This document shows positions 3,176 to 26,290 of a stretch of 26,496 nt of DNA, in pieces. Position numbers and translations under genes: made by a program. This stretch comes from a virus. The stretch is taken from the UHGV virus genome UHGV-0367640; one strand, given 5' to 3'. Position 1 is the stretch's first letter. Every line of letters begins with the position of its first letter. The notes beneath the pieces are model-generated. The model ran no database searches, was not told the origin of the DNA, and saw only the letters and a program-made list of their open reading frames with translations.

Positions 3176-3855
3176 CAGAGTAATACTCCCCATGCCCCTA
3201 CATCAAAACCACTGATGAATTCGTTATCCATATCAAAACCAAAAAATTTAGAGCCTTCCGATGGAGTTTCCACCGAAGGTGTTTCAATGCCCCCCGCCCA
3301 TACCCCGGCGGCTTTTACTGTTAGATACCCCTGTTTAATTGCCGCAATTAACTCACGCGATACATCTGAAATATCAGTATCAGGAAAGACCCAGACCGAT
3401 ATCGTCATGTCCTGGTTATCGACTATCTGCATTCGCAGCCCGGATCCTGCTGTTGCAGCGTCAAGAATTGCTGGAAGCGAATCATTCCGTCCGTCCCAGT
3501 TATTAATCGCAATCTTCGCTTTAAGGATGACACGATAAGTTTCATCGCTGAGGTACATGTATCCGGAATCAGGATCGTATGGCCCCTGCCATACACCCTG
3601 ATCATATCCAAGCCCGTCGGTATCCCAGCTGAAATAGACACCTGAGATAGGCTGGCTGACAACACGGCTACGTCCGATCCACAATCCCAGAATGTCAAGT
3701 TGCACACCAACCGCAGAGTCAATATCAAATGCAGTAATCAGCCCTCTGGTGGCCGCCGCAACATCAATAAGCGGCCGGGTCATCAGATCAACATGTGCAA
3801 GAAATTTAGGTTTGGTGGCGTGGTAGTTCGTGATTAGTTCGGTATATTTGCTCAT
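3175..3855 (-). CDS. Baseplate/tail protein (Mu gp48-like position)
   Basis: 226-aa ORF between the baseplate J-like gene and the tail fiber gene; ATGA overlap at both ends; product assigned by position and size. Confidence 0.5.
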
Positions 3856-5051
3856 GACTCCACCGTTATAACGATATTTTCCGGTGTACAGGACGCAGAT
3901 TCGTTGTATCTGATATCAATGTTTGATGACGACAAAGCCCCCGGGGATTTCCCAATCGTCAGTTCCTGAATATCGTAATAGCGTGCATTCCCGCCACTCA
4001 CCACGCCAAGATTCGCCGGTGAGTAAATGCGACTTAAAAGGACCGAATCACCAATCATCAGACTATTGATATAGTCGGAAATAGCCTGCTGGATCTGCTG
4101 CCCTATCTGTGAGGTATAACCCGTAAAAACTTTTAATTTAATCCGGGCATAAACAGGCACATCACTAGAGCGCGAGAATTTGATTACATGGGGATTGCCG
4201 TATTTATCCGGAACCGTAACGGATGTTGTACCGTGAGTGGATGTCCCCTGGCCTTTATTCCCTCTGATAGCCTGAGCAATATCCGTCACATCACCGCCAT
4301 CCACAATTACAGCAACAGAGTGTGGCGGTAACCCGTTACCGTCCTCCGAACCAGTATCGTTTTCATAGAGTTTGTGGCGGGTTACACCGGCAACATTAGA
4401 AACAGCACCATCCAGTGCTTCAAATGGGGTTATTGATGGCAACGCAACACTTTGCGACTGACGGATACGTAACTCCGCATCAGTTTCTGCCGGAGTGCCC
4501 ACAGTGGCTGCAGCAGGATTGGTTACCGAAACCCAGCCACGGGTTGGTGTATTAATTTCAGTGATAGTTCCAGCCAGCGCCGCCACTGCACCACTGACGG
4601 AACATATTGCGGTCACCATCACTGTACCATCCACGCCGACCACCACTGAAGCAGGCAAACGCCATATCACATTATTACTGTCTTTCACGCTGCCATTAAT
4701 GATGGTTGTTCCGGCAGTTCCTGTAAGAAGCAAATCAACCGTAGAGTTCGTCGCGCCTTTACGTGAAATACCATTTATTTTCACGTTACTGGTCAGTGCA
4801 ACCCCATAGCCGGTTGCCGGTGAAAAACAGTTGTAGACAGTTATCGCCATATTATTGGCATCATGAATCGCCAGCGCCATCAGAGCCACCATCTGGCCGT
4901 CTTTGCTGTCCGGTTCGAGGTAGGCATCACTGCCATAAATCTGCTGAAAATAGCTAATCAGGGTGCTGAGTATCGTCTGATAATCAGGCGCACCGATCCC
5001 CTCCGCGGTTACCTTTGCAGATAAACCGAGAGAATCAAGGTTCAGAGCCAT
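3852..5051 (-). CDS. Baseplate J-like protein (Mu gp47 / P2 gpJ family)
   Basis: 399-aa ORF, size and position typical of baseplate wedge J-like proteins; translationally coupled to neighbours. Confidence 0.65.
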   Translation of the reverse strand: MALNLDSLGLSAKVTAEGIGAPDYQTILSTLISYFQQIYGSDAYLEPDSKDGQMVALMALAIHDANNMAITVYNCFSPATGYGVALTSNVKINGISRKGATNSTVDLLLTGTAGTTIINGSVKDSNNVIWRLPASVVVGVDGTVMVTAICSVSGAVAALAGTITEINTPTRGWVSVTNPAAATVGTPAETDAELRIRQSQSVALPSITPFEALDGAVSNVAGVTRHKLYENDTGSEDGNGLPPHSVAVIVDGGDVTDIAQAIRGNKGQGTSTHGTTSVTVPDKYGNPHVIKFSRSSDVPVYARIKLKVFTGYTSQIGQQIQQAISDYINSLMIGDSVLLSRIYSPANLGVVSGGNARYYDIQELTIGKSPGALSSSNIDIRYNESASCTPENIVITVES

Positions 5052-19585: not shown

Positions 19586-20903
19586 TCTCGATGTCCTCGT
19601 CGGTAATGGATGCCCCGATGCCGGTTACGTCAGAATTTTCGCGCAAATCAGTCATAGCGGCTTTCAGTGTCATCAGACCATCACCCAGCGCCGTACTGAT
19701 TGCGTTGGTGGTGTTTAACGCCACCGTTGAGCGATCGACATCAGACATTTGCCAGAGCGGGTTAAACTCAAACGTGAAATCATCCGGGAGCGGCTTGCCA
19801 AGTTCCGAACGATGCATGATGTCCAGTATCCGACGCACCGGAAGACGTAAACGCCTCTCCTGCAACGAACTGATGCGGTCGTAATAGTTGGCAAGGTCTG
19901 CATCACCGGTAGAAAATCCTTTCGGGGACTGTCCGAACAACCGCACCAGTGGGATACCAACAGCGCCACTAATCTGTTCTGCAAACTGTGATAGGATGTC
20001 ATCCAGACCACTGAAGCTGTACTGATGCGTTTCAAACTTATCCCGCGAGTCCATGAGCGTCATGCCTTCATTGCTCTGGAACTGTCGAATCAGGTCGATA
20101 TTCTTCAGCAACGCTTCATACGCAGGACCACCAAGTGCGATAAGCTCGCGTAGCTTCTCCACGCTGTAGGTACGCAAATGCGCTTTGTAGACCAGCTGCG
20201 CCGCGCCGACAGTAGCGCTGTCGAACGCGGTAAGACGATCCCAGATACGCTCTACAACCGACATTCCCCATTCGTTCTCGGTCATCTTCTGCTGAAATGG
20301 CAGCGTGACGCCATCAAAGCGAATCAGTCGACTGTGATGAATGCGCCAGGCAGGAATTCCCGTTGCTGTGGTCACCACATCGTAAAACTCAGGTTTACCC
20401 AGGTCCGGCCCCATATCTTTAATGCGGCGGGTCAGTACCGGGTCAATCATCCAGCGGTCGAGCGGGAGAATCCCCTTAAACTTGCCCTTACCGATGGTTT
20501 CGGGTCGCAGCGGGGTCATTGGTGCCTGCCCCTCAATCATGATGAAACCCACCGCGCCGCCGTAGAGGCGCGACCATTTCAGCACGTCATTCAGCGCATC
20601 CCAGATTTGCAACTCATCCAGTTGTGATTCGAGAATGCCACGATCTTTTGCATCAATTTCCGAAGTGATGCGAATGCCTTTGCGGGTCATATCATCCGGG
20701 ATAGCATCGACTGCTTCGCCGATGATCCAGGATGAACGATAGGACCATTCCACCAGCATGCGGTTACGACTGGTGAAATTAGCCCGGTAGGTGGATGCTG
20801 AGTGCTGGTTAGGTGTCTGCATCCCTACGCGGGCAATAAAATTCTCATAACCATCAGCTGTGGCCTGCGCAGTTCGCCGCAGGGCTCGTTTGTTTCGTGC
20901 CAT
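19437..20903 (-). CDS. Portal protein
   Basis: 488-aa ORF after the large terminase (ATGA overlap at 20903), acidic C-terminal tail. Confidence 0.75.
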   Translation of the reverse strand: MARNKRALRRTAQATADGYENFIARVGMQTPNQHSASTYRANFTSRNRMLVEWSYRSSWIIGEAVDAIPDDMTRKGIRITSEIDAKDRGILESQLDELQIWDALNDVLKWSRLYGGAVGFIMIEGQAPMTPLRPETIGKGKFKGILPLDRWMIDPVLTRRIKDMGPDLGKPEFYDVVTTATGIPAWRIHHSRLIRFDGVTLPFQQKMTENEWGMSVVERIWDRLTAFDSATVGAAQLVYKAHLRTYSVEKLRELIALGGPAYEALLKNIDLIRQFQSNEGMTLMDSRDKFETHQYSFSGLDDILSQFAEQISGAVGIPLVRLFGQSPKGFSTGDADLANYYDRISSLQERRLRLPVRRILDIMHRSELGKPLPDDFTFEFNPLWQMSDVDRSTVALNTTNAISTALGDGLMTLKAAMTDLRENSDVTGIGASITDEDIENAEDEAPPGIGEPDDEPQEPSGGNPLSNQPTQDSAGGRRHRQWSLRWFK

Positions 20904-22525
20904 CAGGCCTGTCTCCCTAGCAGCTCCCAGATGTTCAGGGCTGAATTCATTGGGGCATAGTTGATCATCACCGAGTCGGCAAGGTTTGGCGACCGGGTTC
21001 CATCAGGCTGTTTATCAATAACGATTTTTCCCACACTATTAATGGAATAGGTCGGCTGCGAAAGCTCGATGATGAGTTTATCTTTGAGTGCCATGCTACT
21101 GCTGATTGAGATGATTTCGTCCGGGTTGTAAGCCATACCTTCAACCACGGCGCGCCAGGTATTCTGAAAAAGTTTACGTAACCGCCACCAGCTCTGGGCT
21201 TTGGCGTTAGCGAAGAAGTCCTTGTTAAGACGTGCGGCTTGCCCGTTGTCCCCGCGAACAGCTTCATCATCCGGATCAAATACCGCGCCACTACCTCGAA
21301 ACGGTGTGGCGAGTATTGACGGTCGGCGCGCAGCGTTACGCAGTTCGTTGATAGCGCGTGCATCGCCGCGAACGCCAGCGCCCAGCCCGTCCTCGTCAAA
21401 GCGAAACTCTTCGAGGTTGTCCTGTTCGCAAAAGCCGAAAACCTTCTCGACGGACTGATAAATGTCGCTGCCCACACCGGACCATTCCCGCACATTCTCC
21501 AGAAGGAAGCCATGACGGGTGGAAAAGGCATTTTTGTCCCTGCCTTCGTCGGCGACATCCATCGCGCCAAGTCGTTTGCCTGTTGGCTGGATCCCCAGTT
21601 TGATATGCGCATCAACGGCAGCCTGTACCCATTCGGATGGAATCAGGACGCCTTCCGCTGATGCGCTGTAGTTCAGATCAAGTTCCTGTGCCACCACCAC
21701 CGGATTATCGATTTTCTCGCATTCCCTGCGATACCACTCTTCATCCTTGCGAGGATCATCCCGCCAGTGGAATGTGAATACCGGTATCTTCCCGCCATGA
21801 CGCTTCTGAGCGAACGGGTTCGCCATGCCATTAACTGAACTCAGGTCAATACGGCAACGCGTCGTTTGTGACAACGCCGCATCAATCAGCAGAGGACGCT
21901 GAAGGAATGCAGCCTCATCAACCAGATAAAGCGTGGTACGGTCACCACGACCAATATTATCGCCAGCCTCGCCTTTGATAACGGCACCAGTTTCAGGAAA
22001 CTCAACACGCATATATGGCGCGTGCTTCTTCTCGCTCCACGAACCGCGAAACTCTACAGGTAGTGTTTCCACGAACTTGCGCGCCTTCCAGAACAATGCT
22101 TTCGGGTCACCGGTGCTGTCGACGTATTCCTCTTTACGGGAGCCGAAACCGATAACCATTTCTTTGTTGAAGAGACAAAGCGAGCAGGCCAGTCCGATCG
22201 CGGTCCAACTGAGCCCCATTTCACGGGATTTTTCGGTAATACCATTCTCCCGATTGCCCCAGCGTTCCATAATCCAGTGGATCCACTCCTCCTGCTTAGG
22301 GAAGAGTAAAAACGGAATGGTCACCGGCAGGCCATAATCAATATTACGCGGGTCCGTTGTCATGCCCCAGTCGATGATGAACTGAGCCGGATTGGTTCGG
22401 TAAAACTGTTTTAGTGCAGGCAATATTTCAGGATTCTGGCGAATGCGCTGTAAGCGTTCCATCCGCCATTCAAAAACCATCTGGTAATCAGGATGTTTAA
22501 AATCGAAGGGGAATGGTAACGGCAT
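20903..22525 (-). CDS. Terminase large subunit
   Basis: 540-aa ORF after the small terminase; deviant Walker A-like [11 protein letters not shown] and Walker B-like [10 protein letters not shown]. Confidence 0.85.
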
Positions 22526-22527
22526 AC

Positions 22528-23079
22528 TTAGCCCATCATTTTTCTATACGCCTCTGCAGCCTGCTCCGGCGTTAAGTTGGTAATTTCTGTTCTGACTGGT
22601 CCTCCATCAGCGCCAGTCACTTCATTTTTGACGTTGTCTTTAAACGCCTGAACAGAAACATGACGCCCAAGCAACTCAAGGTTTTTAACCTTATCAGGCC
22701 ATTTGATTTTCTTCAGAAGTGCGGCGCTATCTGCGGATACCATCTCCACGACATCCATTCCTGATAGCGTTGTGCGCCATACCTTAGGCCAGTCTTTAAT
22801 GGGTTTTAGCTCACCGTTTTGCAGGAGAATGTCGAGCACATCCATCTGGTCGATTTCAAGAAGGCGATTAAGTACGTATTCTGCATTTATTCCAACAGAG
22901 TCATTGCGTTGTGCTTTCAATTCGGAGATTCTGAATTGTATGTCAGGTTTTGACATGTTTTCGGACGCAGTACGGTTGGCTGTCTTTGCGCTGTACCCCG
23001 CCCGAATAGCCGCTTGCGTGGCGTTTAAATCGATGAGGTACTCGCGACAGAACATTTCTTGTTTGTCAGTGAGCGCCAT
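22528..23079 (-). CDS. Terminase small subunit
   Basis: 183-aa ORF, N-terminus [30 protein letters not shown] typical of small terminases; ATG 23079 with AGGGGA 5 nt upstream. Confidence 0.8.
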
Positions 23080-23106: not shown

Positions 23107-23631
23107 ATGAATCCTGAAATTTTTGAATCAAAGTTCATAATGAACGAAGCAACTTGGCAACGAATTGAAAGGTTAGTAAATACTGAAGATGATATTGGTT
23201 TGGTTTTAAGAGTACATCTGATTACAGAAGCAATGATTGAGGCATTTTGTTGCGCCGCTGTAGGTAACCAAAATCTATTTGATGGATTTGGTGAAAACTT
23301 AACCATGACCTATGCCGCAAAAATTCAGCTAGCTGCCAACCTCGGCCTAAATGAACACTCCGTCGCAGAACTTAAACGCCTAAATAGAATAAGAAATGTT
23401 CGCTCTCATCAAATAGACAACCCGGAAATAACTGACGCAGAAATTGAATCATTACGAACATTTATTAGCCGAGGTGGTCAGGAAGATCTCATTAACTCAG
23501 CAAGATTCGGCATAAAAGTTGGAGACATTGAGCTGAATCTTAACCGTCCAGATGCCAATAATCGTGAAAAATTCATAGCTATTCTTGGCAGCATCATCCT
23601 AAGGCTCACTAAACAAGTTGCAGGACAATAG
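23107..23631 (+). CDS. Hypothetical accessory protein with HEPN-type Rx4H motif (candidate abortive-infection/defense gene)
   Basis: 174-aa plus-strand ORF, ATG 23107 with AAGG about 9 nt upstream, divergent from the small terminase start 27 nt away; motif LKRLNRIRNVRSHQ contains RNxxxH. Confidence 0.55.
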   Translation: MNPEIFESKFIMNEATWQRIERLVNTEDDIGLVLRVHLITEAMIEAFCCAAVGNQNLFDGFGENLTMTYAAKIQLAANLGLNEHSVAELKRLNRIRNVRSHQIDNPEITDAEIESLRTFISRGGQEDLINSARFGIKVGDIELNLNRPDANNREKFIAILGSIILRLTKQVAGQ

Positions 23632-24212
23632 AGATCATTGACTGAGCTAATTGATTGTTTTAGCGCATAAACCTATACCACAAAATAGCCACTTATCACG
23701 CTTCATCATTCAATTCTGGCGTGAACTGTATGCGCCTCACATTGTCGGGAGAGAAATACAGTCACTCTCCCGTCTCGATCACAAGCGGCACAAAGCCGTT
23801 AACCAACTCATGCTGAAATCGTGACGTCTTGCTCGTAACGGTTTCGCCTGTTTGGGTGGTTAACGTGATTTGGTAGATGTTGGACATTGAGAATCTCTTT
23901 ATCCGCTTGTGGGGATATCAGTTAAGTTATCCCGTGTAGGGTATAAGCCATTGTCGAGACCACTCATTGAATGGACTCTGCAATAACCGATGTCTTTCCA
24001 TCAGTCCGCCACCACAAAGAATCTTTTTTGCCATAAGGCAGGAGGTTCATCTTTCAGTGGCTGCCAGTGTTATTTCCCCACTTACTGGCTTGGGTTGCTT
24101 CGCGGTACTGCCGTAACTGGTTACCCAGAATAAATTCCGGTTTCATTATCAAGCCCACCCGTAAATGGGCTTTGTAATGAAGAGTTGTTATGAAAATTGC
24201 TCTAAACAAGCA

Positions 24213-24701
24213 TTAATAGCCATCAGAAGTAATCGCTACAGATTTCAATCCCTCAATGTCATCCTTGGACAGGGCGAACCATTCACCGTGCTTTCTCTTT
24301 GCGGCAAATTTGCGATGAAGCATGTTTTCAGTTTCTCTTCCACCAGGGATCAGGCACTCAAGCTTCAAGCAGTCTGGTCCAGAGTTGCCAAGCGATTTGA
24401 TGCGTTGTGGAATGTTGGATGAATACCCAATTTTGGTTAGCCCAGTTTTCTTCGATGACAAAACGTATACCTGAGGAGGTTCTTTTCTCTGGTCTTCCAT
24501 TACACGTCTCATTGTTGCCATAAGTCCGCCGTGCATCAGCATTTCAACAAAGAACGCTGACCGAACACCTGACGACTTAAGCATGCCAGAAAATTCACTT
24601 GCCAATTCCATTAACTCTGCGATGTTTTCAGGAACTTTTTGGCAGTTATCTTCCTTGTATAAGGAAATCATTCTTTGAAGCTTTTCTTCTAATTGGTTCA
24701 T
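24213..24701 (-). CDS. T5orf172-domain protein (GIY-YIG-like superfamily)
   Basis: C-terminal half VYVLSSKKTGLTKIGYSSNIPQRIKSL...HGEWFAL matches the T5orf172 signature; start placed at internal ATG 24701 (AAAGG RBS about 10 nt upstream) rather than 24857 of the ORF track. Confidence 0.6.
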   Translation of the reverse strand: MNQLEEKLQRMISLYKEDNCQKVPENIAELMELASEFSGMLKSSGVRSAFFVEMLMHGGLMATMRRVMEDQRKEPPQVYVLSSKKTGLTKIGYSSNIPQRIKSLGNSGPDCLKLECLIPGGRETENMLHRKFAAKRKHGEWFALSKDDIEGLKSVAITSDGY

Positions 24702-25042
24702 AGCGTCTTTACCTTTTAGAAAGTGAGCCTGTCTCACAGAAAAGCCGCCCGAGAGAGGTTGCCACCTATAACGGCATTTCTCAGGCTCACTTACTGAAAG
24801 GCTCTCGTTAATATGCGCGTGAGATGCGCGGTTTACTGCAGATGTAAAAAGCCCCACAAATGCGAGGCTAAATCCTGGTATTTGTAATGACTGGCTCTTA
24901 TCTCAACGCGGCCCCTTACCGCGCGCCAGATGCTCAATCTCAAGCATCAGCAATGAGATGTTTAATCTGGATTCACTCCAGAAGTGATCACCACCCTGTC
25001 TACAGAGCCAGATGTGAAGGATGATGAGTAAAATTATCGCTA

Positions 25043-25510
25043 TCATCGAAGGCATTGCGTCCTGATGTATTCCTGAAGCGTTCTCAGTGCTGTTTGGTCG
25101 CGGATAATTCCGTCCCGGACACCGAGAACGTTTCGTCCAGCAACTGGAGAGAGTTCGACGGTGGCATCATTGCCCATGCCGGAGGCGCTGGAGGCTTCGG
25201 CTGAGGATGGCACAGGGCATTTTCCTTTGACGAACACCCGACCACCATTATCAAGCTTGCGCCGAAGAGCATCATTTTCAGCTTTCGCATCAGCTAACTC
25301 CTTCGTGTATTTAGCATCGAGTGCATCAGCAGAACGCTGGCGCTGCTGCATGTCAGTAATGGTGGCGGTCGCCTGCTTCAGCTCACTGACTTTTTTATCG
25401 CGCTGCTCTTTGTAGGCGATGGCGTTATCACGGTAATGATTAACAGCCCATGACAGGCAGACGATGATGCAGATAACCAGAGCGGAGATAATCGCGGTTA
25501 CTCTGCTCAT
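25043..25510 (-). CDS. Rz: i-spanin Rz
   Basis: 155-aa ORF with N-terminal TM segment, closely resembles lambda Rz; ATGA overlap with R. Confidence 0.85.
25084..25290 (-). CDS. Rz1: o-spanin Rz1 (lipoprotein, embedded in the +1 frame of Rz)
   Basis: 68-aa ORF wholly inside Rz; [19 protein letters not shown] lipobox followed by Pro-rich [11 protein letters not shown], as in lambda Rz1. Confidence 0.8.
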
Positions 25511-25983
25511 GCCTCAATCTCTCTGACCGTTCCGCCTACTTCTTTGAATTTTGCAATCAGGCTGTCAGCCTTATGCTCGAACTGACCATAACCAGCCCCC
25601 GGCAGTGAAGCCCAGATATTGCTGCAACGGTCGATTGCCTGACGGATATCACCGCGATCAATCATCGGTAAAGCGCCACGCTCTTTAATCTGCTGCAGTG
25701 CAACAGCGTCCTGGCTTTTCGGAGAGAAGTCTTTCAGGCCAAGCTGCTTACGATAGGCATCCCACCAACGGGAAAGAAGCTGGTAACGTCCGGCTGCTGT
25801 TGATTTGAGTTTTGGGTTTAGCGTGACAAGTTTGCGAGGGTGATCGGAGTAATCAGTGAATAGCTCTCCGCCAACAATGACGTCATAACCATGATTTCTG
25901 GTTTTCTGCCGTCCGTTATCAGTTCCCTCTGACCACGCCAGCATATCGAGGAACGCCTTACGTTGATTATTGATTTCCACCAT
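25507..25983 (-). CDS. R: Endolysin R (lambda-type lytic transglycosylase)
   Basis: 158-aa protein matching lambda R nearly residue for residue as I recall it ([24 protein letters not shown]...). Confidence 0.9.
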
Positions 25984-26290
25984 CTTCTACTCCGGCTTTT
26001 TTAGCAGCGAAGCGTTTGATAAGCGAACCAATCGTGTCAGTACCGATGTAGCCGATGAACACGCTCGTTATATAAGCGAGATTGCTACTTAGTCCGGCGA
26101 AGTCGAGAAGGTCACGAATGAACCAGGCGATAATGGCGCACATCGTTGCGTCGATTACTGTTTTTGTAAACGCACCGCCATTATATCTGCCGCGAAGGTA
26201 CGCCATTGCAAACGCAAGGATTGCCCCGATGCCTTGTTCCTTTGCCGCGAGAATGGCGGCTAACAGGTCATGTTTTTCTGGCATCTCCAT
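25967..26290 (-). CDS. S: Holin S (lambda class I holin, dual-start)
   Basis: 107-aa protein near-identical to lambda S as recalled; two in-frame ATGs (Met1 at 26290, Met3 at 26284); the upstream leader matches the lambda late leader. Confidence 0.9.

Follow-up and report, generated by a model that had tools for sequence, protein, structure and literature searches.

Some late or toxic phage genes have their ribosome-binding site (RBS) in an RNA stem that has to be opened before translation, as in the Mu com-mom system and at the RNase III sites of the lambda N-leader and cIII, where the opening is brought about by Com or by RNase III. Here we describe a leader RNA from a stretch of 26,496 nucleotides (nt) of the virus genome UHGV-0367640 (hereafter, the window, always meaning the whole stretch), where it stands directly before a gene encoding a T5orf172 (GIY-YIG-like) protein. 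Whereas the Mu and lambda structures are single stem-loops that serve one gene each, leaders of the window type contain two pseudoknots and precede many unrelated genes, which we refer to as cargo genes. Iyer, Koonin and Aravind reportedly described, in 2002, the shuffling of KilA-N, Bro-N, Rha, ANT, P22_AR_N and T5orf172 domains in regulators of DNA viruses, an account that concerns protein architecture; the cargos of the leader are exactly this set plus HNH_3, with ORF11CD3, P63C and ANT as accessory modules. A search of the literature found no described RNA leader for rha or kilA genes, nor a shared leader for this gene set.

Two other RNAs invite comparison. [quoted passage not shown] Unlike the leader, IsrK has, according to the same portion, its own promoter and terminator and acts in trans on the long isoform, and an Rfam scan revealed no homology between the two. 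The second is P22F, one of ten P22 small RNAs reported in 2026, which is 89 nt long, ends 6 nt before the rha start and was described as 'of no known function'; it is present in infected cells only, was validated by reverse transcription PCR, gives read counts in the hundreds to thousands and shows vesicle enrichment (PMC13397905). P22F shares its type of locus with the window leader, lying downstream of the lysis genes and, in its case, immediately before rha, and the report, in which the read cluster is said to be 'partially overlapping ORF201', describes no structure, no family and no other cargos (PMC13397905).

The hairpin that first drew attention to the window locus is the visible part of a widespread and apparently undescribed RNA family, noticed before only as this unexplained P22 small RNA. 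The reading that we favour, at a probability of about 70%, is that positions 24835-24706 of the window encode a cis-acting structured RNA of the 5' untranslated region, which serves as a translational lock, off by default, on exchangeable, toxic late cargo genes. We rate it as a Shine-Dalgarno (SD)-sequestering phage leader with a complex double-pseudoknot fold that is shared across gene families.

The fold of the leader RNA

An initial annotation, made from the letters of the window alone, had reported a perfect 9-bp inverted repeat in front of the gene (GTGAGCCTG / CAGGCTCAC). The repeat is present (24790-24782 and 24731-24723) but was under-described, being the core of a larger hairpin whose arms, in full, measure 20 nt and are 90% complementary (24712-24731 and 24782-24801). 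RNA folding, which the same annotation had proposed as a check, yields a 92-nt hairpin of -42.8 kcal/mol (z = -4.07), and none of 200 shuffled sequences was as stable. Nor does the structure end 20 nt before the start codon, as had been stated for the repeat: the extended hairpin reaches to 9 nt before the ATG and carries the RBS in its 3' arm. The element comprises the following parts.

24835-24706, minus strand: whole RNA element, about 130 nt, delimited by covariance model matches
24815-24829, minus strand: P0, a small hairpin in the predicted fold, GCGC-AUCUCAC-GCGC, with its loop at 24825-24819
24711-24802, minus strand: long hairpin P1-P6, 92 nt, in the predicted fold; its helix P3 is the 9-bp repeat
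24716-24712, minus strand: SD sequence AAAGG, within P1, the basal helix, on its 3' arm
24819-24824, minus strand: 5' strand of pseudoknot PK1, UCUCAC in the P0 loop, pairing with GUGAGA at 24737-24732
24732-24737, minus strand: 3' strand of PK1, GUGAGA, in the unpaired 3'-side internal loop between P4 and P3
24802-24807, minus strand: 5' strand of pseudoknot PK2, CGAGAG in the linker between P0 and P1, pairing with CUCUCG at 24755-24750
24750-24755, minus strand: 3' strand of PK2, CUCUCG, in the internal loop between P6 and P5

Two covariance models, R1 and R2 (the latter including P0), match the window element, R1 with 115.7 bits on the sense strand compared with 27.7 on the reverse strand, and R2 with 143.5 bits (E = 3.6e-33). 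When distinct variants were folded each alone, the same long hairpin P1-P6 formed in about 45 of 48, its basal helix holding the SD sequence (AAGG or UAGG) on the 3' arm; P1 encloses the SD sequence in every variant folded. The initial annotation had allowed that the repeat might turn out to be unconserved in related prophages; instead, the pairing of the repeat hairpin is conserved and covaries across copies. Compensatory changes on both sides are found in 29 of the 34 pairs of the nested helices (R1 realignment, 103 copies), as when CCUUU/AAAGG in P1 gives way to CCUA/UAGG, and 92.1% of the alignment cells are paired, compared with 37-50% when the partner is slid by one to three columns, values that were not reached in 500 shuffles. 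All four pairs of the P0 stem covary as well (from GCGC/GCGC to GUGC/GCAC, the latter being the Providencia type), with 99.7% of the cells paired, and when nested helices, P0 and PK1 are taken together, 39 of 45 pairs show compensatory changes in the R2 alignment. A plain MAFFT alignment analysed with RNAalifold missed the basal helices on account of 1-nt indels, a difficulty that was solved by realignment to the covariance model. The start codon lies 1-6 nt past the 3' end of the model in 97 of 101 copies, so that the SD sequence sits in a conserved, covarying helix whose short spacing to the start codon is fixed, as is characteristic of SD-sequestering leaders.

At the gathering score, a search of the whole window against Rfam 15 gave no family match, and at E <= 10 it gave only mir-627 (24 bits against a cut-off of 86) and Proteo-phage-1 (16.8 against 42), both spurious, with isrK absent. 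In three loci, one in Arsenophonus nasoniae (L143, 3627-3761), one in Brenneria (L171, 2277-2401) and L164 (4506-4636), the long hairpin is kept and neither a P0 hairpin nor a PK1 partner was recognised; these copies may be degenerate or differently built members of the family.

The two pseudoknots show the same pattern of changing sequence and preserved pairing. For PK1, at least 5 contiguous complementary bases are present in 29 of 31 haplotypes, in roughly a dozen sequence versions that include UCGCA/UGCGA, CUCGCA/UGCGAG, UAGCAC/GUGCUA, UUCACAC/GUGUGAA, UUCUCC/GGAGAA, UUCGC/GCGAA and, in P22, CCGCA/UGCGG. Covariation of this pseudoknot was tested on the R2 alignment, which cannot be fitted to a pseudoknot; there, the central pair is GC in 45 cases, UA in 32 and AU in 9, and the covariation score of 0.236 compares with at most 0.046 for slid partners and was reached by none of 500 shuffles. 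For PK2, whose register differs by one column from subtype to subtype, the test used was free of any alignment. In 55 of 59 haplotypes it can form 5 or more contiguous pairs, in 22 helix versions (among them CGAGA/UCUCG, CCCGA/UCGGG, CCAAGA/UCUUGG, CGCAGA/UCUGCG, CACAGA/UCUGUG, CUCAGA/UCUGAG and the P22 version CCACCGA/UCGGUGG). For either pseudoknot, none of 10,000 permutations attained the duplex energies of the matched partners.

In the window type, the P1-P3 stack comprises about 19 layers and the P4, P5 and PK2 stack about 18; in P22, the numbers are 18 and 18. With lengths that match in this way, the two stacks could lie side by side in a closed fold where all helices would coexist. The same architecture could also suggest a switch that senses a ligand or a factor, riboswitch-like or Com/mom-like, with PK2 and the core of P4-P6 and PK1 acting as the sensor, PK2 competing with P1/P2 and a bound signal freeing the SD sequence. 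Sensor RNAs typically combine features seen here, namely, two covarying pseudoknots and internal-loop nucleotides that are conserved; the 5' strand of PK2 abuts P1 and shares a junction G with it, an arrangement in which classical H-type geometry would bar both helices; and, with one leader serving unrelated cargos, any regulator must belong to the host or to the phage backbone. We nevertheless regard such a switch as unlikely, given that the matching stack lengths, in the window type and in the P22 type alike, allow all helices to coexist, that no alternative, anti-sequestering helix and no Rfam riboswitch match were found, and that the leader is associated with no ligand-related gene, its cargos being DNA-binding proteins and nucleases of at least six families with no metabolic theme. 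Among the properties by which riboswitches are recognised, the complex conserved fold with tertiary contacts is present and the association with genes of a single pathway is absent.

Cargo genes behind a common leader

The leader is a widespread modular RNA element that stands before at least six unrelated protein families. The 103 copies include 40 with KilA-N cargos, 37 with Rha, 9 with T5orf172 and 7 with HNH_3, and the full repertoire consists of KilA-N (with or without P63C or ORF11CD3), Phage_pRha (with or without ORF11CD3 or ANT), T5orf172/MUG113, HNH_3, Bro-N, P22_AR_N and a few unknowns. Leader subtypes and cargo families assort independently: one leader subtype precedes five or six cargo families, and one T5orf172 gene is found behind two leader subtypes. 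When loci with different downstream genes are compared with the window, homology ends exactly at the ATG at 24701. Being common to unrelated genes, the leader is therefore uninformative on the regulation of T5orf172 genes, or on DNA damage, specifically.

Several loci hold leader-cargo units in tandem, each leader with a cargo gene of its own. In a Stx-type phage, for example, Ant lies between R and Rz and Rha after Rz, and in a Yersinia prophage an HNH gene is followed by a KilA-N gene. The loci with tandem copies are these.

L008, 154-287 and 1520-1654: tandem leader copies
L036, 9723-9856 and 10617-10745: tandem leader copies
L147, 4864-4992 and 5732-5865: tandem leader copies
L010, L083, L132, L150, L160 and L164: further loci with tandem copies

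In another locus (L066, about 3802-3930), the leader is truncated in the P4/P3 internal loop and fused directly to the downstream block (ACCGGAATTTATTCT...), the cargo ORF having been deleted. The 3' junctions of the cargos are variable, which fits ordinary homologous or illegitimate recombination between conserved flanks.

Exchange of this kind brings up the possibility that the repeat acts as DNA, either as the operator of a dimeric protein or, comparably to integron attC, as a site where recombination takes place at a hairpin or cruciform. Complementary changes look alike on DNA and RNA, both strands fold equally well, and the precise junction of cargo exchange, the tandem units and the one locus with a deleted cargo would all be in keeping with a DNA-level function. 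We consider it very improbable, however: the pairing is conserved and the sequence is not, loop-to-internal-loop helices such as PK1 and PK2 would be pointless for a DNA-binding protein, no integrase or recombinase lies beside the slot in the annotated loci examined, and the cargo 3' junctions are variable. The initial annotation had proposed that the repeat was either an operator or an RNA structure controlling translation. The operator does not sit well with half-sites 50 nt apart, with pairing that is kept through two-sided changes and with PK1 and PK2 covarying along with the hairpin, and it is the second proposal that draws support from the conserved, covarying helix containing the SD sequence.

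As a place of gene exchange, the slot resembles those of morons and integron cassettes, in that an accessory gene between essential modules is swapped among unrelated phages and occasionally occurs in tandem units. A moron, however, has its own promoter and a downstream terminator, whereas in the window slot no promoter was found and the terminator lies upstream; integron cassettes depend on an integrase and attC, whereas the window slot has no recombinase.

By BLAST, the leader is present in 1,014 of 5,426 complete E. coli genomes, in most of which the match covers the non-coding part alone; the gene annotated there encodes a Rha-family regulator, a KilA-N protein or a GIY-YIG nuclease. The 183 records of the phage collection that contain it include HK620 (before hkbK), phi80 (before rha), Sf101, CUS-3, epsilon34, HK106 and many Stx-converting phages, as well as phages of Salmonella, Klebsiella, Enterobacter, Hafnia and Providencia. 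When one genome of each species was searched by pattern, 45 stretches were detected across Enterobacterales, in about 45 species, where the element occurs in Xenorhabdus, Providencia, Proteus, Morganella, Arsenophonus, Pantoea, Yersinia, Rahnella and Brenneria, among others. In every annotated locus inspected, it lies just 3' of the lysis genes (S/R/Rz). The matches in HK022 (AF069308, 38517-38608), mEp234, mEpX1 and mEp237 extend only over the terminator, P0 and the beginning of the hairpin (query positions 12-102), with no annotated gene; these may be remnants of the element.

The P22 copy and the proposed mode of action

P22F coincides with the P22 copy of the leader, which is matched by both covariance models (60 bits with R1 and 72 with R2) and has P0, PK1 and PK2; the P22-type version of the leader occurs in 78 phage records. 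P22F is thus a divergent member of the leader family, found as a stable RNA in infected cells. As reported, it differs from the full element in that P0 and the 5' strands of PK2 and P1 are missing, its 5' end falling in the 5' arm of P2. In the P22 genome, rha (orf201) is annotated with a GTG start inside the RNA element, in the P6 region (NC_002371, 39575; L176, 1276). An ATG located 6 nt past the element (NC_002371, 39644; L176, 1345) fits the pattern of the family and the N-termini of other Rha cargos, and the P22 rha start is probably mis-annotated.

The P22 data could be taken to mean that the main role of the element is to encode a trans-acting small RNA, its position before the cargo being secondary. 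The region does accumulate in P22 as a discrete, vesicle-enriched 89-nt RNA (PMC13397905), and the element is predicted to be very stable. This view appears quite improbable to us all the same, because an RBS and a start codon are fixed within a few nt of the element in about 100 copies with at least six cargo families, because no promoter was detected, and because almost all of the RNA is paired internally, which leaves little of it as a seed; P22F is equally well explained as a stable product of processing or decay of a structured leader.

Under the favoured reading, that is, a default-off lock in cis, the leader within the Q-dependent late transcript would fold into a compact, closed structure of two stacks (P1-P3 and P4-P5-PK2), tied together at both ends, at one through PK1 and at the other through the covalent connection of PK2 to P1. 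The folded leader would lock the RBS, such that translation of a cargo reached only by Q-modified polymerase would be off, or very low, by default. Release might come when the 5' arm is opened or cut, be it by an endonuclease (such as RNase III or RNase E) or by a factor that the host supplies or that all these phages share; a cut of this kind would account for a P22F whose 5' end falls within the 5' arm of P2. The harmful nature of the cargo class, known from rha (PMC4936722), is in keeping with a lock of this kind.

Several points weigh against this reading. In the minimum free energy fold of the P22 copy, the functional SD sequence (GAAGG) lies just outside the hairpin; occlusion of the SD sequence is therefore not universal in the wider family, and a model of pure occlusion is weakened for the P22 subtype. 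PK2 may coexist with P1/P2 or may compete with them. The alignments of the nested helices were fitted to the structure of the model, the shuffle and permutation controls ignore kinship between the sequences, and, the sequences having been gathered by a conserved 15-mer, the apparent conservation of the P5/P4 3' strand is inflated. Folding energy is equal on the two strands (-46.3 kcal/mol sense and -46.6 antisense), and the strand was therefore assigned from context, namely, the SD sequence, the ATG, the direction of the operon and the strand of P22F. Finally, that the leader lowers cargo translation, and that repression is followed by release, is argued from sequence and from the modelled structure.

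A more far-reaching version is conceivable, if rather doubtful, in which the leader represents a new class of double-pseudoknotted regulatory RNA (a sensor, a switch or, possibly, a self-processing RNA) that would couple translation of the whole Rha/KilA-N/Bro/Ant/T5orf172/HNH class in temperate phages of Enterobacterales to one common signal. Candidates for the signal would then be host factors such as IHF or RNase III, a late protein of the phage or a small molecule. In IHF-deficient hosts, the rha genes of phi80 and P22 prevent phage growth, and rha is described as IHF-regulated (PMC4936722); coupling to a single signal, if real, would explain why the harm done by rha is limited to such hosts. 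In the window, the IHF consensus WATCAANNNNTTR has 24 matches, compared with 26 expected by chance, and the sole match near the leader overlaps cargo-specific sequence.

The T5orf172 gene, its neighbourhood and the wider significance

The right end of the window is a lambdoid late region on the minus strand, with holin, lysozyme, Rz (Rz1 embedded), the cargo locus and the terminases.

25967-26290, minus strand: holin gene
25507-25983, minus strand: lysozyme gene
25043-25510, minus strand: Rz gene, with Rz1 embedded
24903-25055, minus strand: conserved 50-aa ORF overlapping the end of Rz (PHROG 11822, E = 4.8e-37), annotated in related genomes
24869-24850, minus strand: intrinsic-terminator-like hairpin 5' of the RNA element, AGCCTCGC-ATTT-GTGGGGCT, then TTTTT, from a terminator scan
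24213-24701, minus strand: T5orf172/GIY-YIG-like gene, 162 aa plus stop, with a three-helix domain (residues 1-71) and a nuclease-like domain (residues ~75-157)
23912-24212, minus strand: conserved block 3' of the gene, including a hairpin at 24173-24151; 3' flank of the cargo slot in some phages
22528-23079, minus strand: small terminase gene
20903-22525, minus strand: large terminase gene

The segment between Rz and the cargo gene had been taken for a leader of roughly 340 nt; part of it consists of the 50-aa ORF and of the terminator-like hairpin. A rho-independent terminator is annotated at the equivalent site in phi80, epsilon34 and HK106, and a hairpin with a T-run is present in 71 of 92 distinct upstream contexts, at a median distance of 23 nt from the element. 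A promoter scan found no sigma-70-like promoter on the minus strand between 23500 and 25300. Given a late operon under antitermination control, and a P5/P6 sub-hairpin that is followed by UUUUCU, the long hairpin itself might be thought a terminator or attenuator limiting read-through into the cargo. Of the explanations weighed here we find this one the least probable, as the long hairpin is followed by UAAAGACGCU, without a U-run, the scan flags only the separate hairpin at 24869-24850, and a canonical terminator is already present 15-25 nt upstream. The P5/P6 hairpin with UUUUCU, as an internal terminator, was rejected: UUUUCU belongs to P4, as its 3' strand, and in divergent copies covariation has turned this helix G-C-rich (GGGG/CCC).

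The T5orf172 gene itself is ordinary and already annotated. The initial annotation had read a T5orf172 signature in the C-terminal half of the protein, and the minus-strand ORF 24213-24857 does exist, with VYVL, KIGYS and GEWF in its translation; the hidden Markov model search that it called for places the match to T5orf172 (PF10544) at 40.3-41 bits, against a cut-off of 20. In Pfam, the C-terminal half matches MUG113 (PF13455) with 54.8-56 bits (cut-off 22.3), and the canonical GIY-YIG family (PF01541) falls below its cut-off (12.5 bits vs 22.6, E = 0.19). The proposal that translation starts at the ATG at 24701 and not at 24857 agrees with the RefSeq/PGAP annotation, in which the gene has 162 aa in three E. 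coli genomes and phage HK106 under the product name 'GIY-YIG nuclease family protein'; the GTG at 24857 falls within the T-run of the terminator-like hairpin. The description of the gene as a regulated, nuclease-like accessory gene holds as regards the T5orf172 call; its regulation we can only infer, and the leader is not specific to this gene.

In an AlphaFold2 model (predicted local distance difference test, 88.5), an N-terminal three-helix domain (residues 1-71) is joined to an alpha/beta C-terminal domain, predicted to have the GIY-YIG fold. Among 63 relatives, Y79, K90, G92, R100, E125, W141 and F142 are invariant and H129, R136 and E140 nearly so, and these conserved residues appear to map onto catalytic roles (the Tyr of GIY, Arg and Glu). 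A profile search of PDB sequences returned T4 EndoII alone (E = 0.81). In an exhaustive search the C-terminal domain has more than 11,000 relatives at the cluster level and the N-terminal domain a handful, a word-index protein search having given few, and a search for structural neighbours of the N-terminal domain brought up none that was informative. The protein shares its Pfam domains, fold and invariant Tyr/Lys/Arg/Glu with the T5orf172/MUG113 GIY-YIG-like nucleases Odn of ICP1 and NixI of PLE, and differs from that class in its 70-aa three-helix N-terminal domain. It falls in PHROG 4284, labelled 'unknown function', and the PADLOC defence models yielded only a weak match to PDC-S57 (E = 7e-06) that covers the nuclease domain alone. 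It is plausible that the protein is a small site-specific DNA nuclease made late in infection; nothing in the analysis links it to defence or DNA damage.

The block at 23912-24212 is co-conserved with the T5orf172 gene in E. coli genomes (query positions 232-1189 of 1210) and, in 20 of 102 copies, P22 included, follows cargos of the Rha, KilA-N and T5orf172 families, with variable junctions. Within it, especially at 24110-23965, there is clear homology to P22G, a second P22 small RNA (204 nt, downstream of rha). The only Rfam match there, at 24059-24094, is the sub-threshold one to Proteo-phage-1 (16.8 bits, cut-off 42). Between the cargo slot and the small terminase gene, a gene for a 174-aa protein lies on the plus strand (23107-23631), assigned to PHROG 5483 (unknown function; E = 1.7e-50) and only faintly resembling DUF6548; a related prophage of E. 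coli A15 has YodC and DUF6953 genes in its place, and it looks like a separate insertion of the moron type.

The leader element occurs in well-studied phages (P22, phi80, HK620, epsilon34 and the Stx-converting phages) and in about one-fifth of complete E. coli genomes, yet is absent from Rfam. Its recognition corrects start codons, those of the long window ORF and of the P22 rha/orf201 GTG, both of which start inside RNA, and points to a practical use, given that the leader is predicted to be a compact natural translation cassette that is 'off by default'. It would offer one post-transcriptional handle on a set of poorly understood, often toxic proteins, namely, Rha, KilA-N, Bro and Ant, along with the free-standing HNH and GIY-YIG nucleases. 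Three questions become testable: the nature of P22F; why the exchange of cargos falls exactly at the start codon; and how rha and its relatives stay harmless, which bears on the decades-old IHF-dependent phenotype of Rha.

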